DNA of 64,000 nucleotides from an uncultured Gammaproteobacteria bacterium (GTDB taxonomy: Bacteria; Patescibacteriota; Microgenomatia; Levybacterales; UBA12049): contig CAZAZU010000001.1 in NCBI GenBank assembly GCA_964490105.1, forward strand, positions 710,245 through 774,244, given 5' to 3'. The first letter of the stretch is position 1, and each line of letters starts with the position of its first letter. The translations under genes were made by a program, and so were the position numbers. The notes under the pieces were generated by a model. That model was not told the DNA's origin. It did no database searches and saw only the letters and a list, made by a program, of their open reading frames with translations. Of this stretch, positions 14,331-50,953 are shown one piece after another.

Positions 14331-15595
14331 AAATTGGAATTATTGGAGCTGGTTTTACCGGATTATCAGCAGCATACTATTTACAAAAAGATGGACACGA
14401 GGTTACAGTTTTTGAAAAAGACGAAATTCCTGGTGGACTCGCTCTTGGATTTAAAGAAAATGTTTGGGACTGGACCCTTGAAAAGCACTATCATCACTGG
14501 TTCACGAACGATAAAAGTGTTTTGGATTTAGCAAAGGAGATAAACCATGATGTTCTAATTAAAAGACCAATCACCTCTGTTTATTTGAATGACGGAAAAA
14601 TTTATCAGCTCGATTCGCCAATTGCAGTTCTGAAATTTGCAAAATTATCTATCCTTGAAAGATTACGAATGGCTGCAGTCTTAGGTTTATTTTTTAAATA
14701 TAATCCTATCTGGAAACCTCTTGAAAAAATAAATGCCGAGCCTTTTCTCAAATCATCGATGGGGAAAAAAACTTATGAATTAATTTGGGAACCTCAGCTT
14801 TTAAGTAAATTTGGAAAATATAAAAATGATGTTTCTCTTGCTTGGTTTTGGGCAAGAGTTCACAAGAGAACAACAAAGCTCGCATACCCCAACGGAGGTT
14901 TTTTAGATTTTGCTAACCATCTAGTTAAGGAGGTCGAGAAAAAAGGCGGGAAAGTACTATTTAAATCAGGGGTAGAAAAAATTGAAAGCAATAAAAAAGT
15001 AATCATAAAAGCTGATGGTAAAAAATTTGAATTCGATAAAGTCATTGTCACCCTCCCGTCCTTCTACTTCTCAAAGATTGCAGATCTTCCAGAAAGTTAC
15101 TTAAAAAAAATGTCGAACTTAAAAGGCCTAGGAGCGATCAACCTTGTTCTAAGACTGAAAGAGCCTTTCTTTAAAGATTCAACGTATTGGCTAAGCGTAT
15201 GCGATAAGGAAGCTCCAATCTTGGCAATTGTAGAACATACGAATTTTATGGATAAGAAAAACTATAACAATGAAAATTTACTTTATTTAGGAAATTATCT
15301 GCCTTCTGATCATCCATATTTCTCAATGGATAAAAAAGATATATTAAAAAAATATGATCCGTTTTTAAAAAAATTAAATCCTGATTATGGTAAGAGCATT
15401 ATCGATTTCGAGGCATTTAAGGCTCCTTTCGCTCAACCAATAATTCCTGTCAATTATTCAAAGATGATTCCACCAACTGAGACACCCCTAAAAAATGTGT
15501 ATTTAGCAAATATTCAGCAGGTCTATCCATGGGACCGAGGAACTAATTATGCAGTTGAACTGGGAAAAAAAGTAGCAGAACAAATAAGTAAATAA
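14327..15595 (+). CDS. FAD/NAD(P)-binding oxidoreductase (amine-oxidase/UGM-like Rossmann family)
   Basis: MKIGIIGAGFTGLSAAYYL...VFEKDEIPGG dinucleotide-binding motif; 4-nt ATGA overlap with the upstream gene. Confidence 0.65.
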   Translation: MKIGIIGAGFTGLSAAYYLQKDGHEVTVFEKDEIPGGLALGFKENVWDWTLEKHYHHWFTNDKSVLDLAKEINHDVLIKRPITSVYLNDGKIYQLDSPIAVLKFAKLSILERLRMAAVLGLFFKYNPIWKPLEKINAEPFLKSSMGKKTYELIWEPQLLSKFGKYKNDVSLAWFWARVHKRTTKLAYPNGGFLDFANHLVKEVEKKGGKVLFKSGVEKIESNKKVIIKADGKKFEFDKVIVTLPSFYFSKIADLPESYLKKMSNLKGLGAINLVLRLKEPFFKDSTYWLSVCDKEAPILAIVEHTNFMDKKNYNNENLLYLGNYLPSDHPYFSMDKKDILKKYDPFLKKLNPDYGKSIIDFEAFKAPFAQPIIPVNYSKMIPPTETPLKNVYLANIQQVYPWDRGTNYAVELGKKVAEQISK

Positions 15596-17232
15596 TGAGA
15601 TTCAAAAATCTTATTAATAAATATGCCTCAGAAATTATAGTGCTCTTTATTGGATCCTCCTTCGGTTTTATTTTATTTTTTTCTACTTTTTTTAAAGATG
15701 GAGATAAAATTTATATTGCATCAAAAGCATGGAGCGACTTCGCAAGTCACATACCCCTAATTAGGTCTTTTTCTTTAGGTTTTAATTTTCCCCCACAGTT
15801 CCCATTATTTCCAGGGGAACCAATTAAATATCATTTTATTTTTTATTACCTTGTGGGAATCTTAGAGAAAATTGGATTAAACATCGTACTTGCTCTAAAC
15901 ATCCCATCATTCTTAGGTTTTGTTTTTCTAATATTTATGATTTATTTTTTCGCTAAAGAACTATTCAAATCAAAATCTGTAGGAATTTTAAGCGTAATAT
16001 TTTTTCTATTTAATTCATCTCTTACTTATATTTATTTTTTTAAGAAATATCCGCCTTCAATTGATTCAATAAGTCAAATAATTAAGAACGCCGATTTCCT
16101 TTCTTTTGCTCCTTACGGAGATGGGATTATTTCTGCCTTCTGGAATCTTAATATCTACACAAATCAAAGACACTTAGCAGTTTCCTTTGGACTATCTCTT
16201 TTAATAATTTATTTGTCTATAAAGCCACTCATCAAAAATGAAAATCCAAAAATCCGGACATACGTAATACTGGGAAGCATTTTAGGATTAAGCTTTTATT
16301 TACATACCGCTGTATTTTTAATGACAATAATTATTATGGGAGCACTTTTAATCCAGCTTAAAGGATTAAGAAAAAATATTTTCGTCCTAATGTTAGCCGC
16401 TGCAGCAATTTCCCTGCCTCAGTACTTCTACTTGACCTCATCTCCTGGATTTTCTCCACATCTTCAAGCAGGATATTTGATTTCAGGAGATCTAAACCCT
16501 AAAAATATTATAGAGTTTTGGGTCTATAATTTAGGAATTTGCTTATTTCTTATTCCCCTAGGATTTATATTTGCAAATAAATTTCAAAGAAATATTCTTT
16601 TTTCATTTTTTATGCTATTTATTGTTGGGAACACAATTCAGTTTTCTCCGGAAATTGCAGCAAACCATAAATTCTTTAATTTCTTTTTAATCTTAGGAAA
16701 TATGTTTTCTGCTTTTATAATTATTAAGATATTTAAAAAGAAAGTTATTTCCGCTTTGGCAATTATATTAGTTATTTTTATGACATTGGGAGGAATCATA
16801 GATTTATTCCCGATTGTTAATGATAGAAAGTATGAATTGAATGATCATAAAACAAATGCTGATGCGAAATGGATTCTAGAAAACACTGAAAAAGATTCCA
16901 TTTTTCTAAATACAATATTTCTCTATAACCCAGCTTCGATTGCAGGAAGAAAGATATTTTTAGGTTGGCCATATTTTGCCTGGTCCCAAGGATATGACAC
17001 CTATAAAAGAGGTGACGTTATTAAATCCATACTAAGCTCTACTAATAAATCTGAAGCATGTAGTCTGCTTTTAGAAAGTAGTATTGATTATGTTGAGATA
17101 AAAATTCAAGACCCTCCTGATCCAAATGTACCCACCATTTCGAGTCTTTATGAAGAAGAATTTACCAAATCTTATGAAAATATAAATAATAATTATTCAA
17201 TTTATAGTGTTCACAAAAACTGCGGATTGTAA
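15595..17232 (+). CDS. Polytopic membrane protein, putative GT-C-fold glycosyltransferase
   Basis: About 12 predicted TM segments; N-terminal architecture (TM, loop with DGDK, further TMs) resembles ArnT/PMT-like enzymes. Family not assigned. Confidence 0.5.
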   Translation: MRFKNLINKYASEIIVLFIGSSFGFILFFSTFFKDGDKIYIASKAWSDFASHIPLIRSFSLGFNFPPQFPLFPGEPIKYHFIFYYLVGILEKIGLNIVLALNIPSFLGFVFLIFMIYFFAKELFKSKSVGILSVIFFLFNSSLTYIYFFKKYPPSIDSISQIIKNADFLSFAPYGDGIISAFWNLNIYTNQRHLAVSFGLSLLIIYLSIKPLIKNENPKIRTYVILGSILGLSFYLHTAVFLMTIIIMGALLIQLKGLRKNIFVLMLAAAAISLPQYFYLTSSPGFSPHLQAGYLISGDLNPKNIIEFWVYNLGICLFLIPLGFIFANKFQRNILFSFFMLFIVGNTIQFSPEIAANHKFFNFFLILGNMFSAFIIIKIFKKKVISALAIILVIFMTLGGIIDLFPIVNDRKYELNDHKTNADAKWILENTEKDSIFLNTIFLYNPASIAGRKIFLGWPYFAWSQGYDTYKRGDVIKSILSSTNKSEACSLLLESSIDYVEIKIQDPPDPNVPTISSLYEEEFTKSYENINNNYSIYSVHKNCGL

Positions 17233-18495
17233 ATGACGGAAGTAAAAAAATTTTTAATTCATATTCTTGGAAGCAAATTATTAATCTTGGGATTCTTAAT
17301 ATACTTTCTGTTTAATCTATCTGCATTAAAAACAAACTGGCTAGATTACTTCTTCTTCGGAAGCTCTCTTCACTACTGCTGCCAAGGAATTGATTTCTAT
17401 GGAATACCAAATGGCGTTTATTCATTTATCAACGGGGGCGAACTAAGCGGAGGAGGCTTACCCGAAAACATTAAGCCTTTTTCAAGAAATATTACGAGCA
17501 ATCCAAATGATTATCATCCTATCACTGCTTTTGTCATGGGCAGTCTAATTATTGTTTTTAATTATCAGAATGTTTTCTATTATTGGATGGTTGCTAAAAT
17601 ATTAATCACGATTTTTATTGCGTACTATATATACAAAAACTTCCCTGATAATAAATTTCTAAATCTTTCAATTTTTGTTTTTTTAACAAATTTTGCTCAA
17701 TATAGTGAAATTCGAATTTCTCAATATCAATTTCTATTTAATACTTTCCTTTTACTATTTTCGATTAGCTTAGTAAAGAAAAAGGAAGAACTCGAAAGGG
17801 GGATTTTATTTTTTCTTACATTGATTGCAAAACCAATTAGCCTCCTTTTCTTACCTGTTTTATTTATTAAAAATAATTACAAACCAGCATTAATCGGAGG
17901 AAGTATTTTTATCGCTTCAACTCTTACTTTTAACATATTGGGAATTGGAAATTACTTTACGGACAACCTAATTTATCATCTTTTAAATCCTAAGGAGGGA
18001 AAATCCATTGACTACATGTCTCTAGAGGCATTTTTAAGATACACTTTTAATCTATCTCCGGAATTTATTAAATACCTTAAGTATCTTGTGCTCGTATCAA
18101 TATATTTAATTACATTGAACAAAAGAACTCATATTCTAACTATTATTTTCTTTTTAATCTCATATTTCCTATTCTTTTATGATCATCTTTTCCAATATCA
18201 CTTTAGCGTTTTGGGTCCACTCCTAGCAATTTGCCTCCTAACACTTCCAAACTTTCAAACAAAATTTGCAAAATTACTCATTTTCGCAATCTGTCTACCG
18301 ACGGTTTTCTTTATCCTGAGAGTATTTAATTTTGAATTTATTATGGATCCTGTCTATGGTCCAAATCCTACCACGAAAGGCTGGCAAATAACATCATTCT
18401 TTCAATTGTTGCCGTTAACAATTTTATTCGTAATAATATTTATAAAAGAGATCCCCATGATAAAACCTGAAAAATTAAAATTTATAAAAAAATGA
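17233..18495 (+). CDS. Polytopic membrane protein (putative glycosyltransferase or flippase-like)
   Basis: Hydrophobic throughout with 10 or more TM segments; directly coupled to flanking genes. Confidence 0.45.
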   Translation: MTEVKKFLIHILGSKLLILGFLIYFLFNLSALKTNWLDYFFFGSSLHYCCQGIDFYGIPNGVYSFINGGELSGGGLPENIKPFSRNITSNPNDYHPITAFVMGSLIIVFNYQNVFYYWMVAKILITIFIAYYIYKNFPDNKFLNLSIFVFLTNFAQYSEIRISQYQFLFNTFLLLFSISLVKKKEELERGILFFLTLIAKPISLLFLPVLFIKNNYKPALIGGSIFIASTLTFNILGIGNYFTDNLIYHLLNPKEGKSIDYMSLEAFLRYTFNLSPEFIKYLKYLVLVSIYLITLNKRTHILTIIFFLISYFLFFYDHLFQYHFSVLGPLLAICLLTLPNFQTKFAKLLIFAICLPTVFFILRVFNFEFIMDPVYGPNPTTKGWQITSFFQLLPLTILFVIIFIKEIPMIKPEKLKFIKK

Positions 18496-19880
18496 AAAAA
18501 CTAAAAGAACAAATCAGAGAACATGTTTTTGTTTTAATTTCAATTGTCTTTTTTCTTATATTAACTATTCCCTTCATAAACACACTTCCATATATGGATG
18601 GTAATATCGACTTTGTTCAGACTCTAGATTTTTATCAGGGAGGCATGAGTCAATATTTCTCAAATTGGAACACGGTACATCCTCCATTAAAACTATTACT
18701 TACGACGCCTCTTTATTTAATTTTTGGAGTATCACCAATAAGCTATTCTGCGCTTGGAATTATTTTTGGAATTATTGGGATTACTTCTATATATTTTTTA
18801 ACTAAGGAACTTTTTGGAAAATTTTCAGGGAATTTAGCAGCTTTGTTTTTTTCGATTTATCCATTATTTATCGCAAATTCAATATTTTCGATGCGAGACG
18901 CAATAGTGACTTCTTTAATTATCTGTTCACTTCTATTTTATAAAAGAAAAAATTTAATTCTCTATGGCTTAATATCTTCACTTGCAGTCCTTACAAAAGA
19001 AACAGCTCTACTTCTACCCTTAATTATTATTTTTATTGAGGTTATCTTTTTCTTTAAATCCAGAAAACTAAACATTAAATCATCTATAAATTATTTACTT
19101 CTATTTATACCTTTAGGCGTTTACTACATTTGGAAACTTATACTAAGCTCATACGGTAAAGATTCCTGGAGCGAATGGATATTTACAGAAACAGGAGAAA
19201 AAGGTGCAATCTTTACTATCATAAATAACTTAACTACCCTTGGATTCATAAATGCTTATTCGCAGTGGCATTGGAAGCAAGTTATATTTCTTAACTTTAA
19301 CTGGCTATATATTTTAATTATTATTTCCGCGGTTATTTTATATATATTTAATTTCAAAAAAATAAAATTTCATAAAAATATAGAAAACCTTAAAGTATTA
19401 CTAGCAATTATTTTATTTGTCACATCATATTTTCTAACTGTTCTTTCTCTTCAAACCTATACAATCCCTAGGTATGCGCTGCCTGTTATTCCGTTTTTAA
19501 TTATTGGGCTTTCAAAAAGTATTACTGCTCTAAAAAATGACATTGCGGTAAAATCTGCAGGAATCTTATTATATTTAATTATTTTAATTTCTCTTTTTAG
19601 CTCAGTTGATCCAGTTGCTAAAAAAATATGGGGGAACATAAATATTTTTGATAATAATATTTATGCTTTAAATGATCATATGGCAGGAAACGATGGCATA
19701 ACATATAATATTCAATATCTTTTTATTGCAAAAGAAAGATCAGAAATGATAAAAAAAGCAAAAGACATTGAACTAGTAAGCGGATACTGCAGATGGATAT
19801 TACCAGATCCTAATAACGAAGTGAAAATGCTAAAAGAACTTAATCTTAATCCTGCTCTGTATTGTATTCAAATTAGATAA
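18492..19880 (+). CDS. Glycosyltransferase family 39/83 (ArnT / protein O-mannosyltransferase-like, PMT_2)
   Basis: HPPLKLLLTTPLY, SMRDAIV, KETALLLP and SYFLTVLSLQTYTIPRYALP are typical of ArnT/PMT GT-C enzymes. Confidence 0.65.
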   Translation: MKKLKEQIREHVFVLISIVFFLILTIPFINTLPYMDGNIDFVQTLDFYQGGMSQYFSNWNTVHPPLKLLLTTPLYLIFGVSPISYSALGIIFGIIGITSIYFLTKELFGKFSGNLAALFFSIYPLFIANSIFSMRDAIVTSLIICSLLFYKRKNLILYGLISSLAVLTKETALLLPLIIIFIEVIFFFKSRKLNIKSSINYLLLFIPLGVYYIWKLILSSYGKDSWSEWIFTETGEKGAIFTIINNLTTLGFINAYSQWHWKQVIFLNFNWLYILIIISAVILYIFNFKKIKFHKNIENLKVLLAIILFVTSYFLTVLSLQTYTIPRYALPVIPFLIIGLSKSITALKNDIAVKSAGILLYLIILISLFSSVDPVAKKIWGNINIFDNNIYALNDHMAGNDGITYNIQYLFIAKERSEMIKKAKDIELVSGYCRWILPDPNNEVKMLKELNLNPALYCIQIR

Positions 19881-22009
19881 TGCCAATACTGGATCTCTTA
19901 TATATATTCAAATGGTGGGCAGTTTTTTTCTTTATAGGAATATCTTTTCTGCCGCTATCCTCAAAAATATTTGGCTCTTTCATAGATAAAGGCTACATTT
20001 TTTCTAAAGTTCTAGGACTGGTATTAGTTTCATACATCATTTATGTATTAGGAACATTTCATTTACTAAAGTTCACTACACAAAACATATTTATCGTCTG
20101 GATTCTAATCGCAACTACGTCCATATTCTTTTTAAGAAAAGAAAATTTTAATTTAAAGAAAAATTTAAAGATATTTCTATTTGAAGAAATAATATTTCTA
20201 ACTACACTCATAGCCTGGTCCTTTGTTAGGGCTCATCAGCCTGACATTCATGATTTAGAAAAATTCATGGATTATGGTTTTATTAATTCTATTCTAAGAT
20301 CTGAATATTTCCCCCCTCGCGATATGTGGCTTACGCCTCTATCAATAAACTACTACTATTTCGGTCATCTTTTTACAGCTGTTGCGACAAAAGCATCAGG
20401 TATCCCTTCTTTTATAACATTCAACTTAATGATTGCTACGATTTTTGCATTTACATTCACTCTTTCATTTTCAATCGGAATTAATTTGATTCAGCAAATC
20501 AAAAAAATTTCACTTAAGAAAACTTTTATTCTAGGTTTTATTTTTGCTTACGTTGTTTCGTTGTCAGGAAATTTGCAAACTATTTTTTCGCTTTTTAAAA
20601 ATTATAACGGAGAGACGCCGGTTCCATTCTGGGAACTACCCTTATCTATTTTTACATTTCCCAACGGATACTGGTATCCAAATGCCACCAGATTTATTTA
20701 CCACACTATTCATGAATTCCCTTCATATTCATTTGTCGTAGCAGACCTGCACGGACACGTCCTCGATATTCCGATTGTAATTACCCTAATTGCATTTGCA
20801 CTTTTAATGTTTTTAGAAAACAAAATTAGAATTTCGCTAGTTATATTAACATCATTTTTTATTTCCATTGCCTACATGACCAACGCATGGGACGGACTTA
20901 TATACATAGGGTTATTCATAAATATTCTATTCGTTTTAGAATTTATAAATAATAAAAATAAAAAAATTACTAATAGATTTATAAATTCCTTTTTGAAATC
21001 TTTAAGATTCATACCAATAATTGGCGCTTTATTTTTTATTTTCACCTTTGTATTCAGCCAGAACTTCGCGCCATTTGCTTCTGAAATAGGAATTAACTGT
21101 TCACCAAAGCTTTTGTTGGAAATGAAAAGCTTCGGACCGTTCGTTTTCGAAGAAGGTCAGTGTCAACGCTCACCACTTTGGCAACTTGGAATACTATACG
21201 GATTTTTTATATTTATGCTGACGGGATTTTTTATATTCATAAAAAATAGAAAAATAATTCCTACTGATATTTTTGTAGGAGTAATATCTCTATTCTCAAT
21301 TCTTTTATTAATTGCTCCTGAGATAATTTACTTAAAAGATATTTATACTGGACATTTCAGAGCAAATACAATGTTTAAATTGGCATATCAAGCCTTCATA
21401 ATGCTCTCTTTTTCAAGCATTTACATATTTTTTAGAATTCTCTCATCATTCAAGACTGAATTTAAATCTAAATTCTCAAAAGTATCAGTTATAATATTTT
21501 CAATTATTGGTTTTACCCTGCTATTTATTGTTTCCATCTATCCCTACTTTTCAGTTCCTTCGGGTTACGGAGATTTAAAAACATATAAAGGCCTGAATGG
21601 AACAAATTATCTTAAAACCCTAAAACCCGGAGACCATGATGCCATAATCTGGATAAATCAAAACATAAAAGGCCAACCGGTAATCCTGGAGGCTCAAGGA
21701 GATTCATATACTGACTTTGCAAGAATCTCAGCAAACACAGGTCTTCCTACAGTGCTTGGATGGACGGTTCATGAATGGCTTTGGCGAGGAACATATGACG
21801 TACCATCTGCTAGATTTTCTGACATTCAAAATCTCTATGAATCAAAAGATCAGAACTTAACTAAAAGTATAATAAAAAAATATGATATTTCATATGTCTA
21901 TATCGGAGGCATGGAAAGAGAAAAATATAAAATATCTGAAGAAAAATTTTCTGAATTAGGATTCCTAATTTACGCTAAAGGAACATCTAGGATATATAAG
22001 ATCCGTTAA
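19880..22009 (+). CDS. YYY-motif membrane protein (DUF2298 / Chlor_Arch_YYY family), putative oligosaccharyl/glycosyl transferase
   Basis: PPRDMWLTPLSINYYYFGH motif; 709 aa with many TM segments and a C-terminal soluble domain. Confidence 0.6.
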   Translation: MPILDLLYIFKWWAVFFFIGISFLPLSSKIFGSFIDKGYIFSKVLGLVLVSYIIYVLGTFHLLKFTTQNIFIVWILIATTSIFFLRKENFNLKKNLKIFLFEEIIFLTTLIAWSFVRAHQPDIHDLEKFMDYGFINSILRSEYFPPRDMWLTPLSINYYYFGHLFTAVATKASGIPSFITFNLMIATIFAFTFTLSFSIGINLIQQIKKISLKKTFILGFIFAYVVSLSGNLQTIFSLFKNYNGETPVPFWELPLSIFTFPNGYWYPNATRFIYHTIHEFPSYSFVVADLHGHVLDIPIVITLIAFALLMFLENKIRISLVILTSFFISIAYMTNAWDGLIYIGLFINILFVLEFINNKNKKITNRFINSFLKSLRFIPIIGALFFIFTFVFSQNFAPFASEIGINCSPKLLLEMKSFGPFVFEEGQCQRSPLWQLGILYGFFIFMLTGFFIFIKNRKIIPTDIFVGVISLFSILLLIAPEIIYLKDIYTGHFRANTMFKLAYQAFIMLSFSSIYIFFRILSSFKTEFKSKFSKVSVIIFSIIGFTLLFIVSIYPYFSVPSGYGDLKTYKGLNGTNYLKTLKPGDHDAIIWINQNIKGQPVILEAQGDSYTDFARISANTGLPTVLGWTVHEWLWRGTYDVPSARFSDIQNLYESKDQNLTKSIIKKYDISYVYIGGMEREKYKISEEKFSELGFLIYAKGTSRIYKIR

Positions 22010-23778: not shown

Positions 23779-25593
23779 ATGGACAATCTGATTCTCAAGG
23801 ATCTAAATGAAGAGCAAAAAAAAGCTGTTCTAAATAGCGATGGACCAATGATAATTCTTGCCGGAGCAGGAAGCGGAAAGACTCGAGTACTTACTTATAA
23901 AGTTATCTATTTAATTCAGGAAAAAAAAATTAACCCCCAAAATATCCTGATGGTAACTTTCACAAATAAAGCGGCAACTGAGATGAAAGAAAGAATCCAG
24001 AAATTATCTGACAACCCTGATAAACCTTTAATCGGGACATTTCATTCTCTTTGCGCAAGAATATTAAGAATTGAAGGAAAATATATCGGGTTTTCTGAAA
24101 AGTTTACGATTTATGATTCATCAGATAGCGTGGACGCAATTAAAGAAGCCATGAAACGCGCAAACATTTCAACGAAAGATTTTAAGCCATATTCAGTTCA
24201 GTCCACAATTTCTCAAGCAAAAAATCAATTGATCAATCAGCTCGAATATTTAAACTTAGCTAGAGGATATTTCCAGGAGAATGTCGCAAAAATTTATCCC
24301 TTCTATCAAATAATCCTTAAGGAAAATAATGCTTTGGATTTTGATGATTTGATTCTAAAAACTATTGAACTTTTTAACAAAAATCCGGAGGTTCTAAAAA
24401 AATATCAAGATAAATTTCAATATATTTTAGTTGATGAGTATCAAGACACTAATCAAGCGCAATACATGCTAACTAAAATGCTTTCAAAAAAATGGAAAAA
24501 TATTTGTGTTGTCGGAGATTTTTCCCAAAGCATCTATAGCTTTAGAGGAGCAAATTTTCAAAACTTAATTACATTTAATAAAGACTTTGCAAACGTAAAA
24601 ACATTTCATCTTTCTCAAAATTATAGATCGACTCAGACAATTTTAGACAGCGCATATGGGGTCATTTCAAAAAACACCTCTCATCCGGTTTTAAAACTAT
24701 GGACAGAAAATAAAGGTGGAGAAAAAATAATTTTATATGAAGCAAATAATGAACATAACGAAGCAGAATATATAATTTCCCAAATCATTAATTTGGGAAT
24801 TAATCCATCTGAAGTAGCTGTTTTATATAGAACTAACGCTCAATCTCGCGTAGTTGAAGAGGTATTTCTTCATCACGGAGTTCCATATTCTTTAGTTGGC
24901 GGAACAAGATTTTATGAAAGAAAAGAGGTTAAAGATATTTTGGCATACTTAAGAGTAATTGATAATGAAAAAGACAACGTTTCATTTAGAAGAATTGAAA
25001 AAATTGGAAAAACGAGACTTAAAAAATTCATGGAGTTCACGGAAAACTTAGATAAAGAAAACATGCAAACAATTGAAATCATGGATAAGGTAATTGAAGC
25101 CGTAGATTATCTTTCTCTTTACGATCCTAAAGATGAACAAGATATGGGACGGCTTGAAAACATAAAGGAACTTAGATCAGTGGCAATTGAATTTCCGGAT
25201 CTTTCAACATTTCTTGAAAACGTTTCACTTGTTGAACAAGAACAGCTTTCAGAACTCGCAAAAAAAGATAAAAAAAATGCTGTAACCCTTATGACTCTTC
25301 ACTCTGCTAAAGGCTTGGAATTCCCTCATGTATTTATGATTGGCATGGAAGAGGGAATTTTTCCGCACTCCCGCTCTCTTATGGAAAAAGATGAGCTTGA
25401 GGAAGAAAGAAGACTTTGCTATGTAGGAATAACTAGGGCTAAGGAAAGACTTTTTATGACTTATTCAAAAAATCGTCTTATTTATGGACAGCGATCGTCA
25501 AACACTTTATCTCGCTTTATTTTAGACATCCCAAAAGATACAATTATCATGAACGCTTCTTTTGAAAGTGAGGAAGCTCCTGAATATCTATGA
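23779..25593 (+). CDS. ATP-dependent DNA helicase UvrD/PcrA family
   Basis: AGAGSGKTRVLT Walker A, TFTNKAATEM, DEYQDTN and later helicase motifs. Confidence 0.9.
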   Translation: MDNLILKDLNEEQKKAVLNSDGPMIILAGAGSGKTRVLTYKVIYLIQEKKINPQNILMVTFTNKAATEMKERIQKLSDNPDKPLIGTFHSLCARILRIEGKYIGFSEKFTIYDSSDSVDAIKEAMKRANISTKDFKPYSVQSTISQAKNQLINQLEYLNLARGYFQENVAKIYPFYQIILKENNALDFDDLILKTIELFNKNPEVLKKYQDKFQYILVDEYQDTNQAQYMLTKMLSKKWKNICVVGDFSQSIYSFRGANFQNLITFNKDFANVKTFHLSQNYRSTQTILDSAYGVISKNTSHPVLKLWTENKGGEKIILYEANNEHNEAEYIISQIINLGINPSEVAVLYRTNAQSRVVEEVFLHHGVPYSLVGGTRFYERKEVKDILAYLRVIDNEKDNVSFRRIEKIGKTRLKKFMEFTENLDKENMQTIEIMDKVIEAVDYLSLYDPKDEQDMGRLENIKELRSVAIEFPDLSTFLENVSLVEQEQLSELAKKDKKNAVTLMTLHSAKGLEFPHVFMIGMEEGIFPHSRSLMEKDELEEERRLCYVGITRAKERLFMTYSKNRLIYGQRSSNTLSRFILDIPKDTIIMNASFESEEAPEYL

Positions 25594-26618
25594 CCTTCTC
25601 AGACATCGGAGAAAATCTAGCAGATTCATTTAATCAAGGCGCACATCATCCGCTTCAATCTTTTGAGTGGGGAGAGTTTAGAAAAAAAACAGGTGTTGGA
25701 ATTATAAGACGAGGCGTTGTAAATGGAGATAAAGTAAGTAATCCATATCAAATCTCAGTGCATAAAACTCCAAATTTTCCATATCTCATTGGTTATTTCC
25801 CAAAAGGAAAACTTCCGTCTGAAGAAGAAATTTTAGAACTTCAAAAGACAGGAATTGAAAATAATTTAAGCTTTATTCAACTAGAACCAAATGTCACAGC
25901 CGAGCAAAAAACAGGAGTCAGTAAAAATCTAAGATCGTCTTTTCATCCTCTTTTTACAAAGTATACCTTCATTCTGGATCTTACTCTCCCAGAAGAAGAG
26001 TTGCTTAAAAAAATGCATCAGAAAACTAGATACAACATTAGACTCTCTCAGAGACACGAAGTAAATGTAAAAATTAATAACAGCGAAAAAGCTTTTAAAG
26101 AATATTTAAAATTAACAAATGAAACAACGAAAAGACAAAAGTTTTATGCACACGATGAAAAATATCATAAATTAATGTGGGAAACTTTAGGAAACAAAAA
26201 AAACGAGGAGTTTAAACCGAATAGACTTCAAGCACATCTTCTTACAGCAGAATATAAAAATAAAACACTCGTCACGTATATTTTATTTACTTTTAAAGAT
26301 ACACTTTATTATCCATATGGCGCATCCAGTGATGAGCATCGAGAAGTAATGGCGTCCCCTCTAACAATGTGGGAAGCGATAAAATTTGGAAAAAGTCTAG
26401 GCTTATCTAAATTTGATATGTGGGGAGCCGCAAATGTACCTGACCCAAAACCCGATAATCCATATTATGGCTTTCATAGATTTAAAGAAGGTTTTGGAGC
26501 AAATCTTACTGAATTTGTAGGAAGTTATGATTTAGTAATTAATCCTTTAAATTACAGACTATTAACTGTAGCAGATAAAATAAGATGGGCCTATCTAAAA
26601 GGAAAAAAGCTCAAATAA
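25590..26618 (+). CDS. FemAB-family peptidoglycan interpeptide-bridge aminoacyltransferase
   Basis: N-terminal LQSFEWGEFRKK and overall size fit FemX/FemAB. Confidence 0.7.
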   Translation: MTFSDIGENLADSFNQGAHHPLQSFEWGEFRKKTGVGIIRRGVVNGDKVSNPYQISVHKTPNFPYLIGYFPKGKLPSEEEILELQKTGIENNLSFIQLEPNVTAEQKTGVSKNLRSSFHPLFTKYTFILDLTLPEEELLKKMHQKTRYNIRLSQRHEVNVKINNSEKAFKEYLKLTNETTKRQKFYAHDEKYHKLMWETLGNKKNEEFKPNRLQAHLLTAEYKNKTLVTYILFTFKDTLYYPYGASSDEHREVMASPLTMWEAIKFGKSLGLSKFDMWGAANVPDPKPDNPYYGFHRFKEGFGANLTEFVGSYDLVINPLNYRLLTVADKIRWAYLKGKKLK

Positions 26619-27126
26619 TATAAAGCCGCAATTCGTTCTCCTTATCAATTTTCTTTAGAGGCAATTTCATTTCATATTTATAACTTACAATTCTAGTTCC
26701 TTTTTTTAATTCTTTTCTAAATTTTGGAATTAATCTATTTAAAGTTTGCGGAACCAAATATACATATAAAACTGTAGCATTATTTAAATCCTCTTTGTAA
26801 AAATTTCCTCTAACAAGTTTTATGTTTTTATTTTGACCGATTCTCCAAACGGTAAATTTAGAAATTAAAAACCTAAACGGTTCTATCTCAATTCCAACAC
26901 CCTTTGCTCCAAAATCTTTAGCTGCGACAACTAAAGCAGTTGCGCCCCCAGAACCCAATTCATATACAACATCTTTTTTGGAAAGATTCGCTAACTTAAA
27001 TGCAGCTCTTGCTGTTTTTTTATGAGTTCTCCACCTAGGTGACCATGGTGAATCAGGAGGCCAAATCCATGATAATAGAATTAAAGATAGAAGTATTAGT
27101 ATTAAAAAGATTAAATTAATAATCAC
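26611..27126 (-). CDS. Membrane-anchored class I SAM-dependent methyltransferase
   Basis: N-terminal TM; VYELGSGGATAL (motif I); coupled 1 nt downstream of sodX. Confidence 0.6.
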   Translation of the reverse strand: MIINLIFLILILLSLILLSWIWPPDSPWSPRWRTHKKTARAAFKLANLSKKDVVYELGSGGATALVVAAKDFGAKGVGIEIEPFRFLISKFTVWRIGQNKNIKLVRGNFYKEDLNNATVLYVYLVPQTLNRLIPKFRKELKKGTRIVSYKYEMKLPLKKIDKENELRLYII

Positions 27127-27411
27127 TTAGATTTTAAGAATTACCTTGGCTTTTATTTGATTCCTTTTAACAGATCCGAACCGACGACTATCAAAACTGT
27201 CTTTTTTATTGTCTCCTACCAAGAAGTATTTTCCCTTTTCTATCTTAGCAATTCTCTTAATATAAAATCTGTTGAATTTTTCAAAAACCACTACATCTCT
27301 TTTTTTTGGACGAGCAAAAATTAAAGGCAGGGAACTTACCAAAACATTATCTCCTTCTGAATAAGTTGGGGCCATCGAGTGGCCAGATATTTTAAAACGA
27401 GAAAGAAGCAT
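27127..27411 (-). CDS. sodX: Ni-SOD maturation protease SodX (S26 signal-peptidase-like, TM-less)
   Basis: Has SGHSMAPT (catalytic Ser) and GDNKKDSFDSRRFG, the SPase I box. Only 94 aa with no TM. Its start overlaps the sodN stop. Confidence 0.65.
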   Translation of the reverse strand: MLLSRFKISGHSMAPTYSEGDNVLVSSLPLIFARPKKRDVVVFEKFNRFYIKRIAKIEKGKYFLVGDNKKDSFDSRRFGSVKRNQIKAKVILKI

Positions 27412-27911
27412 TAACTTTGTACCACAATTTCTAGGCCGGTAGGGAATGGGGCTTTTACCCTATGGGATTCAAGTCCTTTTGATTTATAAAATATTTCAGC
27501 GATCAACATTACTTTTTCCAAAAGCTCTTTTGCGCTTTCCATATCTATTCCGGTTCTTGCTTTTGCTCCTAACTTTTTAGCATCTTCAAACAACGCTTCT
27601 AGTTCTGGAAATTTTGAGAAATTATTTTTAAAATAATCATCCTCAAGAGTTGAAAGCTCGTGCTCTAAAATATTTGAATGTTCTTCCTTTACATGAGTTA
27701 CCCGACTAACATCATGCTCTGCTTTTAACTCATCATCGCGCTTAATCAAACTTAAAAGCTCGGTCATTCTTATAATAGTATGTGCGGCGACTTGAGCTTG
27801 ATGCGGATCATAAATCCCGCAAGGAATATCACAATGCGCATAAGCGGTTCTGGAAGGCAAAATATTTAATAAAAAACTAAGCTTCATGTGGAATGATAAT
27901 AGAAAACTCAC
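27411..27911 (-). CDS. sodN: Nickel-containing superoxide dismutase precursor
   Basis: After a propeptide of about 25 aa comes HCDIPCGIYDPHQAQ, the Ni-hook motif of Ni-SOD. Confidence 0.85.
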   Translation of the reverse strand: MSFLLSFHMKLSFLLNILPSRTAYAHCDIPCGIYDPHQAQVAAHTIIRMTELLSLIKRDDELKAEHDVSRVTHVKEEHSNILEHELSTLEDDYFKNNFSKFPELEALFEDAKKLGAKARTGIDMESAKELLEKVMLIAEIFYKSKGLESHRVKAPFPTGLEIVVQS

Positions 27912-27928
27912 TAAAAAATGTCAAGGAA

Positions 27929-28477
27929 TTAGGCAGCTCTCTGTTCGTCAAAACCTTCCGCAACAAAAACATCCTGAGGTGGCCTAGTTTCATCTCTAGC
28001 ATCTTGTGCTTCAAGTGTTCGATTGCGTTCATCAGCAAGCTTTCGATCACGAGCGGCAATTTCCATAGCCCAAATTTCTTCTTGCCTTTGCTTTCCAAGA
28101 ACTATTTCTTCCTCTTCTATAGCAATTCTTCTTGCAACTACGGGATCTTGGGTCAATTCTAATCTATATTGCCTTACCAGTAGAGCAAACTCTTGTGGAT
28201 TTGCAAATACCCTACGTGGATCCAGAACTTGAGTATCCCAAGTGGCATATGGATTAGTAGATTCAGCTACACTTGCACTCATAGGAATATCATTTCCTAT
28301 CTCATTACTATATGGATCGCGCCTTAATTTCAACCCGGTAACCGTTGGATCTCCAAGTGGACCAAGCGCAAATTGCCGTGCAATATTATGCTTTATCCTG
28401 TCTTCACGAGTCAGATTCTCTCTTTCTGGAGAAAGAGCAGTGTGCTCAACTTGGGGAGCCGAGTCAGGACTTGACAT
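27929..28477 (-). CDS. ORFan, compositionally atypical (about 45% GC), Glu/Arg-rich coiled-coil C-terminus
   Basis: Long ORF in a region whose GC is far above the window background; no recognisable domain. Confidence 0.4.
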   Translation of the reverse strand: MSSPDSAPQVEHTALSPERENLTREDRIKHNIARQFALGPLGDPTVTGLKLRRDPYSNEIGNDIPMSASVAESTNPYATWDTQVLDPRRVFANPQEFALLVRQYRLELTQDPVVARRIAIEEEEIVLGKQRQEEIWAMEIAARDRKLADERNRTLEAQDARDETRPPQDVFVAEGFDEQRAA

Positions 28478-28571: not shown

Positions 28572-29183
28572 ATGGCAAATCCAGCCGAACTAGCCAGATT
28601 TAAAAATTTAACTCCCGATCGAGCTCATGCGCTTTCTCCCTTAAGAATCCCCCCAGAGATAAAAAGATTTCCCAGAGGAATTGACTTAGTTAACGGGATT
28701 AATGTCCAACATGATAATAACAATGGAGTAATTTACGAAGAGCAATGCTTCGAAGACTATACGATGCGACTCCCAAATAACCAGGTTGCAATAGGACCGC
28801 ATTTACTCGATAGGGCTATTGCACTTGGAGGAACACCATTAATACAATTTGCAAGACCTGATGCTTTAAAATTCCAATTTACACATGGAAACTTAGAGCT
28901 GGTAGAAATGGCAGAATTTAAAAGTAGGAAAAAAAATGGTATCACTGCATTAAAAGAAAAAATTTCCGCTTTTCCTGATTTGCTTGATTATTTAAGACTC
29001 AGACCTAGACTATTAGCTCGACTACTTAATGATGCTGCAGATAACGAGATTGATATTGGTAAAATTATAATTCCTCCTAATGTTGACATAAAAGTCCTGG
29101 TAATTAGCGCTCACTTATATCCGATAACGCCATCCGTCCTTCCATTTGAAACTAGATTTGAATATGCTCGATTAAAAACCTAA
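28572..29183 (+). CDS. ORFan, compositionally atypical, divergent from 27929..28477
   Basis: 203-aa ORF with non-local amino-acid usage (R/L/P-rich); no recognisable domain. Confidence 0.4.
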   Translation: MANPAELARFKNLTPDRAHALSPLRIPPEIKRFPRGIDLVNGINVQHDNNNGVIYEEQCFEDYTMRLPNNQVAIGPHLLDRAIALGGTPLIQFARPDALKFQFTHGNLELVEMAEFKSRKKNGITALKEKISAFPDLLDYLRLRPRLLARLLNDAADNEIDIGKIIIPPNVDIKVLVISAHLYPITPSVLPFETRFEYARLKT

Positions 29184-29228: not shown

Positions 29229-29300
29229 TCCGTGATAGCTCAATGGTAGAGCAATTCGCTGTTAACGAAAAGGTTCTAGGTTCGAGTCCTAGTCACGGAG
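29229..29300 (+). tRNA. tRNA-Asn (anticodon GTT)
   Basis: Cloverleaf: acceptor TCCGTGA/TCACGGA, D-arm GCTC..GAGC, anticodon loop CTGTTAA, T-arm CTAGGTTCGAGTCCTAG, discriminator G. CCA is not encoded. Confidence 0.9.
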
Positions 29301-29359
29301 CAGAGTTTTAAATATTATAAACGCGTGATTTTCTTTTAATCTGTGGTAGAATAAATAAA

Positions 29360-35272: not shown

Positions 35273-36190
35273 ATGCCAAAAGAATTACTACAAGCATTTG
35301 TTTTTCCAGGTCAAGGAGTACAAAGAACTGGAATGGGAGCAGATCTTCTTTTTCATGAAAACCCAGATATCGCTAGGTCTGCAACAAGAACTTACGAAGA
35401 AGCAGATGACACTCTTAAATTGAGAATTAAAAAATTAAGTCTTTATGGAGAGCAAGAAAGATTAAATCATCCAGGCCTAACTGAACCTGTCATTCTTACT
35501 GCAAGCATCGCAGCTTTAAGAATCTTAAGAGAAAGAGGGATGCAGGCAGATGTGGTAGCTGGACATAGCTTGGGAGAATACTCTGCATTAGTTGCTGCAG
35601 AAGCGCTTAGCTTTGAACAGGCATTAAAACTTGTTAGATCTAGAGGGTTACTCATGGAACAAGCGGGAAAAATAAATCCAGGGAAAATGGGTGCAATACT
35701 AGGCAATTTAACTCTTGAGGATGTTGAAAGAATTTGCCGGGAATCTGGAGCTGAGATTGCAAATATAAATGCTCCTGACCAAATTGTTATTGCAGGACGA
35801 CATGAATCTCTAGATAAAGCTGGAGAAATCGTAAAAAAAGAAAAAGGGAAATTAGTAGTTTTAAAAGTGAACGTTGCTTCTCATTCTTCCCTGATGGAAC
35901 CAGCCAGAGAGGGAATGAGAGAAATGATAAAAGATGAACCTATCTCTGATCCAACTCTACCAATCGTTATGAATCTTACCGCAGATTATGCATCCGATAT
36001 AGGTAGCATAAAGCGAGAATTAGTGGACCAACTCACTGGAAGAGTTCTTTGGCTAGATACAATTAGACAAATTCATAGAGATGGAGCAGGTACTTTTATA
36101 GACATAGGCCCTGGTCAAGTTTTGGCTAACATGATAAAAAAAATTGAACCTTCTGCTACTACCAAAACCGCAGAAGAAATAATTAGATAA
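35273..36190 (+). CDS. FabD-family acyltransferase (malonyl-CoA:ACP transacylase-like)
   Basis: FPGQGVQ, GHSLGEYSAL (active-site Ser) and VASHSSLM (His) motifs. No ACP/KAS/KR neighbours. TATAAT 14 nt upstream of the ATG. Confidence 0.8.
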   Translation: MPKELLQAFVFPGQGVQRTGMGADLLFHENPDIARSATRTYEEADDTLKLRIKKLSLYGEQERLNHPGLTEPVILTASIAALRILRERGMQADVVAGHSLGEYSALVAAEALSFEQALKLVRSRGLLMEQAGKINPGKMGAILGNLTLEDVERICRESGAEIANINAPDQIVIAGRHESLDKAGEIVKKEKGKLVVLKVNVASHSSLMEPAREGMREMIKDEPISDPTLPIVMNLTADYASDIGSIKRELVDQLTGRVLWLDTIRQIHRDGAGTFIDIGPGQVLANMIKKIEPSATTKTAEEIIR

Positions 36191-45176: not shown

Positions 45177-45722
45177 TTAATTTTCTTGATATTCATCTTT
45201 AATATCTTTTCCATATTTTTCAATTAATTTGTGGACTTTCGGACCAATTACATAACTACAATACATAGCGTCCTTATTTCTTTCATAATAATTTTTATGA
45301 TAGTCGTCCGCTTCATAAAAGTTTTTAAAGGAAACAACCTCTGTAACTATTGGACGATCAAACACTTTCTCTTCAGTTAACTCTTGAATAAACTCTTCTG
45401 AAACAGACTTCTGCTCTTCAGAATGATAAAAAATAGCTGATCTATACTGTGGACCCATGTCATTTCCCTGCTGGTTTGGAGTCGTTGGGTCATGAGTATA
45501 GAAAAAAACTTCAAGTAACTTTCTAAAGGGAATTAAGTTGGGATCGAATTCAATCTGAACTGCTTCAGCATGTCCCGTACCACCTTCAGATACTTCTTCA
45601 TATGACGGATTTTGTAAATCTCCTCCTGAGTAACCAGGAATTACCGATATAACCCCTTTAAGTCTTTGAAATATTGCTTCTGTGCACCAAAAACATCCTC
45701 CTCCGAACGTAGCTTTTTGCAT
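45177..45722 (-). CDS. msrA: Peptide methionine sulfoxide reductase MsrA
   Basis: ATFGGGCFWCTEA active-site motif. Confidence 0.9.
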   Translation of the reverse strand: MQKATFGGGCFWCTEAIFQRLKGVISVIPGYSGGDLQNPSYEEVSEGGTGHAEAVQIEFDPNLIPFRKLLEVFFYTHDPTTPNQQGNDMGPQYRSAIFYHSEEQKSVSEEFIQELTEEKVFDRPIVTEVVSFKNFYEADDYHKNYYERNKDAMYCSYVIGPKVHKLIEKYGKDIKDEYQEN

Positions 45723-48067: not shown

Positions 48068-48568
48068 TTAGACTTTAAAATATTTCCCAACCAGAAGCCC
48101 CATTAATGTTGCAGCGCCGCCAAGAATCAAAATCTCAATTGCACTTTTTAAAGGATTTACTTTTACGATATGTGCTTTAAATAACCCGAGTACAAAAAGA
48201 CCTACCATTGCGGCTGCTATACTAATTGAAGCAGATAGGGGTAACTTTAATAAAACAATGGGCGCTAGAGAAACTAGTCCCCCTAGAAAATATGAAAGAG
48301 CCATTAATCCTCCCCCAACCACCAGGCTATCTGTATGCTTTCCGGTTTTATCCATCTGATGTACTGACTTCTCGCTCATGTATTGACCAGCTCCCATAGA
48401 AAGTGACTCAACAGTTATAGTTACTAACCCTGCCAAAATAACAAGCTCTTTATTCTGGGTTCCTGCAGCAACCCCCGCTATCACTCCAGTAGTAGAAACC
48501 AGAGAATCCTGGAAGCCAAAAATAATACTTCTCAAATAATCCTCGTGGATATCAGAAAGCTTTATCAT
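48068..48568 (-). CDS. VIT1/CCC1-family Fe/Mn transporter
   Basis: FGFQDSLVSTTGVIAGVAAG motif and TM-rich C-terminal half. Confidence 0.75.
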   Translation of the reverse strand: MIKLSDIHEDYLRSIIFGFQDSLVSTTGVIAGVAAGTQNKELVILAGLVTITVESLSMGAGQYMSEKSVHQMDKTGKHTDSLVVGGGLMALSYFLGGLVSLAPIVLLKLPLSASISIAAAMVGLFVLGLFKAHIVKVNPLKSAIEILILGGAATLMGLLVGKYFKV

Positions 48569-48858: not shown

Positions 48859-49281
48859 ATGTCTTTTTTGAAAAAAAACTTTTTGCAATTTTCTTTAGTG
48901 ATTTCCCTAACATCAACTCTGGGTAGCTTATACTTTAGTGAGATTCTAAAGCTCCCTCCTTGTCTTCTGTGCTGGTATCAAAGAATCTTCATGTATCCGC
49001 TTGTTGTAATATTTGCTGTCGGAATTTGGAAAAAGGATAAAAATATTCCCTACTTTGCCCTCCCGCTTAGCATCATCGGAACTATTGTTGCCTCATATCA
49101 CAATCTTCTTTACTATAAAATAGTTCCTGAAAGCTTGGCCCCATGCACTCTTGGCATATCCTGCACAACAAAACAAATCGAATGGTTTGGTTTTATCACG
49201 ATTCCATTCCTTTCTCTTTTAGCTTTTGTTTCAATAACAATTCTCGTGCTTCTTCACAAAAAATATTCTACTGCCAAATAA
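48859..49281 (+). CDS. Disulfide bond formation protein B (DsbB/BdbC family)
   Basis: Four TM segments with periplasmic Cys pairs (PPCLLCWYQR and PCTLGISC). Confidence 0.65.
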   Translation: MSFLKKNFLQFSLVISLTSTLGSLYFSEILKLPPCLLCWYQRIFMYPLVVIFAVGIWKKDKNIPYFALPLSIIGTIVASYHNLLYYKIVPESLAPCTLGISCTTKQIEWFGFITIPFLSLLAFVSITILVLLHKKYSTAK

Positions 49282-49291
49282 TACATTTTAA

Positions 49292-50953
49292 ATGAAATTT
49301 GATAAGGGGCTAATATTCGTTTTCTTAATTTCCTTAATTCCCCTGTTTGATTTATTTACACTGGGATTATTAGTTACTCATGACGCTTGGCTTCATGGAG
49401 GAAGACTCGCCAGTTTTTATCAAAGTCTAAGCGAGGGAATTCTTATCCCTAGGTGGGCTGGAAATCTTAATCTTGGATTTGGACACCCGATACTCATGTT
49501 TGTTTATCCGCTTCCCTCATACATCGGATCTATCCTTCATTTCCTAGGGCTTACCTACACCGATGCAATAAAAATAATGTTGGGCGGATCTTATATCTTA
49601 AGCGGAATTTTTATGTATATCTGGGTGAAAGAATTTTTAGGAAAAAATGCAGGAATAATTGCAGCAATTTTATATTTATATGCGCCATACAGATTCATAG
49701 ATCTATATGTTCGTGGGGCTTTAGGTGAACATATGGCTTTTGTTTTTCTGCCTCTTATTTTGTATGCGCTTCTTAAGCTAAATAAAATAAAAGGTAACTT
49801 AAATATTAAAGGTTATTATTTATCCTTTGTTTTCTCGGCAATCTCATTCATGCTTTTAATCCTAACCCATAATGCCGTCAGTCTTATATTTATACCTTTT
49901 ATTGTTTTTTATGCTTTATATTTATTTCTTGAAAATAAATCAAAGCTTAAATTATTCATAACATTCTCATCACTTGGATACGGAGTTTTATTGAGTTTTT
50001 TCTTTTGGTTTCCTGCGTTTATGGAAGGGAAGTATACCTTAAGAGACATAATAACTGCCGGCGAATATTCAAAGCATTTCGTAAATCCAATTTCTTTAAT
50101 TTACGGACCATGGAGCTTTGGGGGGTCAGGTATATTTACCGTTCAGATAGGAATTGTTCACATTGCATTAGTAATAGTTTCAATAATATTTTTCAAAAAA
50201 TTATTTAAAAAATCAAAGAATGAAAAAATATTTTACCTGGGGACATTAGGCTTTCTTCTGGTTAGCGTTTTTCTGATGTTAAAAGAGTCAAACTTTATTT
50301 GGCAAATTTTAACAACACTTCCGAAAATACAATTCCCGTGGAGATTTTTAACAATGATAGTATTCTCTACTTCAGTTATCGGCGCTTTATTTGTATCTAA
50401 ATTTAATAATAAATTATTAATCTTAATTATTTCGCTCGCTGCGATCATTCCCACATATTCATATTGGCATGCAAAAGAATATGATACGTCTTTTACAGAT
50501 AACTATTTTGAAAAAGTTTTTAAGGGAACCACAGATACGGGTGAGGTTTCCCCAATTTGGTCAATTAGATTCATGGAGGAGGAGGCAAAAGATGATATTG
50601 AAATAATCGATGGAGATGCCGATCTCATTAAAGTTGAGAAAAAATCAAATTATCATGAATATGTAATTAACGCAAATAAAAGAACCAGAATTCGAGAGAA
50701 TACTTTATATTTTCCGGGATGGAAAGCATATGATAACGAAATTGAAATTACAAATATAGAGTTTCAAGATCCAAAAAACAGAGGCCTTATTACATTTTAC
50801 GTAGATCCAGGACTACACAATATAGTTCTTAGATTTGAAGACACGAAGCTTAGAAAATTTGCAAATTATGTTACTGCAATTTCATTTATCGGATTAATCT
50901 TTGTACCAATACTAATCGCTAATAGCATTAGAAAAAGATTAAAGAATAAATGA
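49292..50953 (+). CDS. Polytopic membrane protein, putative GT-C-like glycosyltransferase
   Basis: 12 or more TM segments plus a C-terminal soluble domain; coupled to the downstream YfhO-like gene. Confidence 0.5.
   Translation: MKFDKGLIFVFLISLIPLFDLFTLGLLVTHDAWLHGGRLASFYQSLSEGILIPRWAGNLNLGFGHPILMFVYPLPSYIGSILHFLGLTYTDAIKIMLGGSYILSGIFMYIWVKEFLGKNAGIIAAILYLYAPYRFIDLYVRGALGEHMAFVFLPLILYALLKLNKIKGNLNIKGYYLSFVFSAISFMLLILTHNAVSLIFIPFIVFYALYLFLENKSKLKLFITFSSLGYGVLLSFFFWFPAFMEGKYTLRDIITAGEYSKHFVNPISLIYGPWSFGGSGIFTVQIGIVHIALVIVSIIFFKKLFKKSKNEKIFYLGTLGFLLVSVFLMLKESNFIWQILTTLPKIQFPWRFLTMIVFSTSVIGALFVSKFNNKLLILIISLAAIIPTYSYWHAKEYDTSFTDNYFEKVFKGTTDTGEVSPIWSIRFMEEEAKDDIEIIDGDADLIKVEKKSNYHEYVINANKRTRIRENTLYFPGWKAYDNEIEITNIEFQDPKNRGLITFYVDPGLHNIVLRFEDTKLRKFANYVTAISFIGLIFVPILIANSIRKRLKNK

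Follow-up and report, generated by a model that had tools for sequence, protein, structure and literature searches.

The window analysed here is a 64,000-nucleotide (nt) stretch of contig CAZAZU010000001.1 of assembly GCA_964490105.1, and it carries on its minus strand a locus for a nickel superoxide dismutase (Ni-SOD). The locus consists of sodN, which encodes the enzyme precursor, a gene for a small S26 serine peptidase resembling the maturation protease SodX, and a gene for a membrane-anchored methyltransferase of the S-adenosylmethionine (SAM) dependent type. A sequence-only reading of this DNA had proposed a sodN-sodX-methyltransferase operon in a small genome, and the three minus-strand open reading frames (ORFs) on which it was built all lie where it had placed them. 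The overlap it had described between the first two genes is real, the sodN stop codon and the sodX ATG sharing the letters TAATG. The spacer of 1 nt that it had given between sodX and the methyltransferase gene is in fact 0 nt, since the GTG of the methyltransferase abuts the TAA of sodX. The promoter, sodN and the peptidase gene are laid out as follows.

27896..27924, minus strand: sigma-70-type promoter TTGACA-17-TATTAT, with 11/12 consensus matches
27411..27887, minus strand: sodN, Ni superoxide dismutase precursor of 158 amino acids (aa), a 17-aa leader plus a 141-aa mature chain
27837..27887, minus strand: SodN leader peptide MKLSFLLNILPSRTAYA, ending Ala(-3)-Tyr-Ala(-1), from translation
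27804..27836, minus strand: Ni-hook HCDIPCGIYDP, from translation, with the ligands His1, Cys2 and Cys6 and with Tyr9
27127..27411, minus strand: sodX-like S26 serine peptidase gene, 94 aa, from PF10502, the catalytic boxes and the sodN adjacency

The product of 27411..27887 is a Ni-SOD precursor with an intact hook, for which nickel binding and activity are predicted from the sequence. It scored 110.4 bits against the Pfam family PF09055 (Sod_Ni, cut-off 25) and 122.1 bits against the NCBIfam model TIGR02753 (sodN, cut-off 90). Comparison with Ni-SOD profile models was the check that the sequence-only reading had proposed, and since both curated thresholds are passed the similarity is not a chance match. 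The alignment to the Streptomyces NiSOD chains 1T6U and 1Q0D begins exactly at His1 (E ~1e-17), and in 1T6U it spans residues 1-115 of 117 (E 5e-17), which by sequence comparison takes in the helical-bundle body. The hook itself, which had been noted directly after the leader, is translated at 27804-27836 of the minus strand and pairs residue for residue with HCDLPCGVYDP of 1T6U.

Two sets of homologues were compared. A scan of one genome per species yielded 80 loci with SodN relatives at 46-93% identity, and a search of 1.84 billion cluster representatives yielded 555 Ni-SOD clusters, from which 105 representatives with the full hook were compared. The His1/Cys2/Cys6 ligand pattern, on which the sequence-only reading had staked its assignment, is present on alignment and invariant in the relatives; together with Tyr9, these residues are invariant in the 80 related sequences and the 105 diverse representatives alike. 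Asp3, Pro5 and Gly7 of the hook are conserved. Almost all of the SodN homologues are 157-160 aa long, so that the 158 aa of the window protein are typical. In one close relative (L010, ~1640..1743) sodN is broken by a run of N, which is an assembly gap or masking and not a real disruption of the gene.

The leader had been put at about 25 residues and described as longer than the leader of about 14 residues in Streptomyces, and this length needed correction. A 25-aa leader needs a GTG start at 27911 (166 aa in all), whereas the ATG at 27887 gives 17 aa. We rejected the GTG as a candidate: it sits within the promoter, after the -35 hexamer and before the -10 hexamer, and relatives keep the ATG. 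The -10 hexamer of this promoter (TTGACA-17-TATTAT, 27924..27896) ends 8 nt before the sodN ATG, and in the closest relatives a Met likewise stands 17 residues ahead of His1. Because GTG 27911 falls inside the promoter, while ATG 27887 is conserved and gives the typical length of 158 aa, the leader is the 17-residue peptide MKLSFLLNILPSRTAYA, and sodN should be annotated from the ATG. Leaders are typically 15-22 aa across the related genome loci, and the commonest range among the 105 diverse representatives is ~15-24 aa. The window leader is just 3 residues longer than the 14 aa of Streptomyces and well within the family range; a long leader was accordingly discarded as a novelty, 17 aa being ordinary for Ni-SOD.

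The position of the promoter is itself conserved. A promoter with at least 9/12 consensus matches ending 3-12 nt before the sodN ATG was found in 58/91 related loci, compared with 2% of positions drawn at random from those loci. The space between the -10 hexamer and the ATG is too short for a Shine-Dalgarno sequence. Since the promoter abuts the start codon and leaves no such room, the sodN mRNA is likely to be leaderless or nearly so, a prediction from sequence that the recurrence of the arrangement suggests may apply to sodN transcripts across the lineage. An Rfam scan of the window at gathering thresholds returned only a tRNA-Asn, and no riboswitch upstream of sodN.

The second gene encodes the 94-aa S26 peptidase that the sequence-only reading had described as lacking a transmembrane segment and as carrying SMAPT and GDNKKDSFDSRRFG boxes; the ORF at 27127..27411 does contain GHSMAPT and GDNKKDSFDSRRFG, and its Kyte-Doolittle 19-residue maximum of 0.64 leaves no hydrophobic segment. 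The protein matches PF10502 with 68 bits. Its catalytic elements are Ser12 (GHSMAPT), Lys52 (YIKRI) and box E (GDNKKDSFDSR), which align to GESMDPT, YVKRV and GDNREVSKDSR of Staphylococcus aureus SpsB, and Ser12, Lys52 and G66-D-N are invariant in 78 orthologues. The gap between sodN and sodX is typically -4 to 0 nt across relatives (median -1 nt), and this overlapping or near-zero spacing suggests that the two genes are translationally coupled.

Many public gene calls for the SodX orthologue (P0397, P0398, P0406 and about 35 others) are only 82 aa long and cover about 87% of the 94-aa query. These look like systematic start miscalls at Met13 (MAPT...), which drop the catalytic Ser12. Their probable cause is that the real start lies across the sodN stop codon and is not preceded by a ribosome-binding site.

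The residues ahead of the putative cleavage site also agree with an S26 enzyme. The tripeptide (A/V/I)-Tyr-Ala precedes HCD in 76/79 related loci with a readable hook, and among 140 diverse NiSOD representatives 138 have Ala at -1 and 133 have Ala or Val at -3. S26 peptidases prefer Ala-X-Ala, and with Ala at -1 and Ala or Val at -3 the end of the leader fits this rule.

Of the 79 loci in which the neighbouring gene could be assessed, which come from Levybacteria, other Patescibacteria and DPANN archaea, 78 have sodX as the next gene downstream of sodN. The named records among the 80 are Candidatus Levybacteria or Levyibacteriota, other Patescibacteria, and DPANN archaea (Aenigmatarchaeota, Micrarchaeota and Nanoarchaeota), with one further record labelled Heimdallarchaeota, which is not DPANN. 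In one related genome (L046, 6542..9289) sodN and sodX are separated by an inserted cassette of 2.8 kb. The cassette encodes a 277-aa protein without assigned function, a four-helix protein that resembles bAvd (55 bits with Pfam) and a reverse transcriptase (89 bits with RVT_1), and judged from these genes it looks like a diversity-generating retroelement. Many third-party annotation records of metagenome-assembled genomes (MAGs) titled 'uncultured Gammaproteobacteria bacterium' carry the Levybacteria-type locus, with sodN-sodX-methyltransferase, FemAB and helicase genes. These titles look like placeholder mislabels, unfit for taxonomy.

The host is a small uncultured groundwater-type bacterium of the Levybacteria, within the candidate phyla radiation (CPR, or Patescibacteria). 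The proposal of a small genome fits: a 784,859-bp contig, to which the window belongs, encodes proteins with 100% identity to its SodX and methyltransferase, and the relatives that come closest are Candidatus Levybacteria MAGs. Among the named relatives a Levyibacteriota MAG is nearest, with a helicase 98% identical to the one in the window.

The third gene and its surroundings are as follows.

26611..27126, minus strand: aKMT-type class I SAM methyltransferase, membrane-anchored, 171 aa, from PDB and fold matches
27067..27123, minus strand: N-terminal transmembrane helix of the methyltransferase, residues 2-20, from hydropathy and the structure model
25590..26618, strand opposite to the methyltransferase: FemAB-family gene, convergent to the methyltransferase gene with an 8-nt 3' overlap

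The membrane anchor that had been proposed for this protein was borne out, with an N-terminal hydrophobic helix that reaches a Kyte-Doolittle 19-residue maximum of 3.0 and is modelled over residues 2-20. The near-invariant juxtamembrane motif WIWPPDSPWSPRW follows the helix and leads into a class I SAM methyltransferase domain, in which the SAM motif E-x-G-x-G takes the invariant form E55-L-G57-S-G59. The best PDB matches are to aKMT (5FA8 and 5JWJ, E 1.5e-22, 35% identity). An AlphaFold model was obtained with a mean predicted local distance difference test score (pLDDT) of 91.6, and its top fold matches, at TM-scores of 0.74-0.86 (0.75-0.80 for aKMT), are aKMT and 5BXY from Salinibacter, which reach fold-search E values of ~1e-15 against ~1e-8 for the next methyltransferases. 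Against NF041081, the aKMT equivalog, the protein scored 87.7 bits, below the cut-off of 200. From the model and these scores, the methyltransferase is a relative of aKMT with the seven-beta-strand fold that lies outside the archaeal equivalog, and lysine methylation is its predicted activity. The closest solved relative of the domain, Sulfolobus islandicus aKMT (5FA8/5FAD/5JWJ), is a broad-specificity lysine methyltransferase that, unlike the window protein, has no membrane anchor. A transmembrane anchor, a conserved pre-methyltransferase segment and a methyltransferase domain make up ATPSc-KMT and ANT-KMT (FAM173B and FAM173A), which methylate membrane proteins (PMC9006661). Compared through this published domain description, the animal mitochondrial enzymes and the window methyltransferase are similar in layout.

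Whether this protein belongs to the Ni-SOD system is a separate matter. The sequence-only reading had counted it as the third gene of the operon, and that claim holds for the arrangement, the genes being co-oriented and abutting, and not for the link to Ni-SOD, which is restricted to one lineage and inseparable from conserved synteny. If the methyltransferase had been recruited in Levybacteria as a lineage-specific third component of Ni-SOD, its target might be a lysine of SodN or SodX, or a membrane protein whose methylation would be linked to superoxide defence; it might also hold maturation at the membrane. Such a role would be in keeping with the GTG that abuts the sodX stop and with the lack of a predicted promoter or terminator between the two genes. 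It would also suit the recurrence of the pair: the methyltransferase lies behind sodX in 50/54 Levybacteria-type loci chosen through SodN, and in the converse test, a metagenome scan that started from the methyltransferase, sodX was directly upstream in 18/20 assessable loci at 46% identity or more. All three genes remain together in about 90% of the loci of the lineage. The sodX-methyltransferase gap is 3 nt or less in 28/48 loci.

The wider distribution of the gene makes such a role unlikely. The methyltransferase was absent from all 21 assessable sodN-sodX loci outside the lineage, among them loci of other CPR bacteria and DPANN archaea, and four loci in which the FemAB marker is present (L003, L005, L057 and L061) have sodN-sodX without a methyltransferase at that position. 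An opposite-strand gene stands between sodX and the methyltransferase in two others (L043 and L083). Two orthologues with the WIWPPDSPW motif (L099 and L101) occur in unrelated contexts without sodN-sodX, and 59 homologues at a greater distance (31-41% identity) all lack sodN and sodX in their vicinity. In 44/50 methyltransferase loci the convergent FemAB gene is kept, in most cases with a UvrD-like helicase gene behind it, and because this flank is retained equally well, the adjacency to sodX is indistinguishable from synteny alone. When SodN was searched for lysines confined to the lineages with the methyltransferase, none was found, and the known maturation of Ni-SOD, that of Streptomyces, needs only SodX and nickel.

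The association of the methyltransferase with sod is therefore best explained by lineage synteny, a functional link being unproven. Because the gene abuts sodX and no promoter or terminator was found between them, co-transcription in this genome is most likely, and we consider the methyltransferase probably to be co-transcribed here. Its substrate is most likely another, probably membrane-associated, protein rather than a partner in Ni-SOD maturation. The 3' ends of the methyltransferase and FemAB genes overlap by 8 nt (26611..26618), and no terminator-like site was found for either gene. The two orthologues in unrelated contexts (L099, 737..1291, and L101, 1952..2488) carry the motif as LSWIWPPDSPW; one stands beside an RNase H-like gene and the other beside an unassigned gene. 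Each is then followed by a convergent ORF, and the two ORFs share a conserved C-terminal region (in L101 the ORF encodes a hydrophobic 464-aa protein).

Apart from the methyltransferase, sodN and sodX very probably form a functional two-gene Ni-SOD module in this Levybacteria (CPR/Patescibacteria) genome. Five observations weigh against that reading. Three of them concern the peptidase: it scored 53.5 bits against the SodX equivalog TIGR02754, below the cut-off of 63.25; it scored 79.3 bits against TIGR02227, the generic sigpep_I_bact model (cut-off 47), which is above its score with the SodX model; and its close relatives are named 'S26 family signal peptidase' at NCBI. The fourth is in SodN, where Glu17 and Arg47, the hydrogen-bond partners of His1 in Streptomyces, are replaced by Ala17 and His47. 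The fifth is that no recognisable nickel transporter was found in the 64-kb window, in which all ORFs of at least 110 aa were read and the membrane candidates were compared with Pfam; these candidates matched MFS, VIT1, PsiE, DsbB and TspO. Cyanobacterial sodN-sodX clusters often include a putative nickel permease, and the window sod locus differs from them in having no transporter adjacent.

The substitution in SodN proved to be a normal state of the family. Ala17 of the mature chain is residue 34 of the precursor. Among the 105 diverse Ni-SODs, positions 17 and 47 co-vary in two states, E17/R47 (about 30 sequences) and A/S17/H47 (about 57 sequences), and the window SodN and all 80 relatives are of the A/S17/H47 type. 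Glu17/Arg47 thus marks a subtype and not the Ni-SOD family, and Ala17/His47, which had been considered as a possible novelty, was rejected as such because it is the commoner of the two states.

With the equivalog score below its cut-off, the SodX assignment rests on architecture and context, and the first three observations could also be explained if the 94-aa protein were a general type I signal peptidase, LepB-like, that stands beside sodN by chance while another protease cuts the leader. We consider this very improbable. Type I signal peptidases need a membrane anchor to reach exported substrates, and the window protein has none; with only 94 aa it is also without the long stretch that SpsB and LepB have inserted between boxes D and E. 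Its match to TIGR02754 runs end to end, over positions 2-88 of the 90-position model. Chance proximity is difficult to reconcile with a neighbour of sodN that is kept in 78/79 assessable loci and in two domains of life, usually with overlapping stop and start codons, and several orthologues are named 'nickel-type superoxide dismutase maturation protease' by JGI. The claim of a SodX protease that removes the leader thus stands as regards the adjacency, the Ser/Lys dyad and the lack of a transmembrane segment, and falls short on the TIGR02754 score. An S26 peptidase working like SodX is supported, and cleavage of the leader is what its sequence and setting predict.

Export of the Ni-SOD to the cell surface, with the leader as a Sec signal peptide, is extremely improbable: although an N-terminal Lys, a hydrophobic run and an A-X-A site are all present in MKLSFLLNILPSRTAYA, the run is only about 8 residues long (the Kyte-Doolittle 19-residue maximum of the whole precursor is 0.84), the neighbouring peptidase, being soluble, would be separated by the membrane from an exported substrate, and similar leaders of 14-24 aa occur family-wide, the cytoplasmic Streptomyces enzyme included.

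If sodN and sodX do act as a two-gene module, its operation can be sketched from the features above. The strong sigma-70 promoter abutting the ATG would drive sodN from an mRNA that is probably leaderless, and translation of sodX would be coupled to that of sodN through the shared TAATG. As a cytoplasmic S26 peptidase without an anchor, SodX would then cut the 17-residue leader after Ala-Tyr-Ala, and cleavage would free the alpha-amine of His1. The hook HCDIPCGIYDP is expected to bind nickel via the amine and imidazole of His1, the amide and thiolate of Cys2 and the thiolate of Cys6, and the cytoplasmic enzyme would presumably remove superoxide under oxygen exposure. Underneath this sketch lie direct observations: which genes these are, their ligand and catalytic residues, the pattern at the cleavage site, the order of the genes over about 100 loci and the conservation of the promoter.

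Measured against the best-known system, that of Streptomyces coelicolor and S. seoulensis (1T6U, 1Q0D), the window SodN belongs by sequence to the same fold family and shares the hook residues His1, Cys2, Cys6 and Tyr9; the short leader ending in Ala and the adjoining small S26 peptidase without a transmembrane segment are also common to both. The window SodN is only ~35-40% identical to the Streptomyces enzyme; 6 residues are inserted behind its helix 1, and its C terminus is extended by about 21 residues. Where Streptomyces has Glu17/Arg47 it carries Ala17/His47 and a clade-conserved His19, and the failure of the peptidase to reach the TIGR02754 cut-off is counted as a further difference, from Streptomyces SodX. 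The enzyme sodX is described as the maturation protease in work that also reports some marine small-genome cyanobacteria with Ni-SOD only (PMC8346466). The pairing of sodN with sodX in small genomes is common to those cyanobacteria and the window, while habitat and phylum differ.

The closest published context is that of Sutherland et al. (bioRxiv 10.1101/2021.01.12.426412), who described Patescibacteria NiSOD clusters with archaeal (Woesearchaeal) sequences nested within them and transfers to Woesearchaea. The window SodN belongs to these clades, its nearest relatives (50-89% identity) being MAGs of Levybacteria, other Patescibacteria and DPANN archaea, all of them with sodX downstream. The term sodX has 0 occurrences in that report, and our observations on gene order, the methyltransferase and the promoter add to it and do not contradict it. 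SOD genes, with sodN in the screen, were found in most Patescibacteria MAGs from oxic groundwater by Chaudhari et al. (10.1101/2021.07.28.454184). Close relatives of the window protein are already labelled 'superoxide dismutase, Ni [Candidatus Levybacteria bacterium]' in GenBank. Since Ni-SOD has been published for Patescibacteria and DPANN and the relatives are annotated, the presence of the enzyme here was already known, and the window locus is an ordinary, intact, previously described Ni-SOD system.

Several other genes of the window were recorded. Two divergent ORFs lie between sodN and the tRNA-Asn gene, one of 182 aa (27929..28477, minus strand) and one of 203 aa (28572..29183, plus strand), with the tRNA-Asn gene beyond them at 29229..29301 on the plus strand. 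Neither ORF had a match in Pfam or NCBIfam, and the G+C content of the two is slightly above that of their surroundings. Clear homologues (67-90% identity) were found only in the closest relatives (L001, L002, L004 and L010) and weak ones (27-37%) in four others (L005, L011, L017 and L020). The pair may be a small lineage-specific insertion. A comparison of the two ORFs with the ORF at 53404..53979, as possible paralogues, was negative.

The window also contains a methionine sulfoxide reductase gene, MsrA, at 45177..45722 (minus strand, 219 bits), a VIT1-family transporter at 48068..48568 (minus strand) and a DsbB-family protein at 48859..49281 (plus strand). Very large, highly hydrophobic ORFs of 420-797 aa occur in runs at 15595..22009 and 49292..53343, both on the plus strand; judged by eye, they look like membrane glycosyltransferases of a GT39/ArnT-like or YfhO-like kind. 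Two plus-strand ORFs, 35273..36190 and 53404..53979, lie in stretches richer in G+C (~0.39-0.41 compared with ~0.33). One is a FabD-like acyltransferase (Acyl_transf_1, 129 bits), unexpected in a lineage thought to be without fatty-acid synthesis, and the other encodes a 191-aa protein rich in Pro, Arg and Gln with no family match.

The biological novelty of the locus is low, Ni-SOD and SodX being well understood. It does raise the question of the reason for an aKMT-type membrane methyltransferase behind sodX throughout one lineage, and it draws attention to the fact that the solved Ni-SOD structures cover only the Glu17/Arg47 type and not the Ala17/His47 type to which the window enzyme belongs. 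As regards the organism, an ultra-small and presumably anaerobic or fermentative lineage carries an intact superoxide defence that is probably strongly expressed, and an intact Ni-SOD fits reports of CPR bacteria tolerating oxic groundwater.

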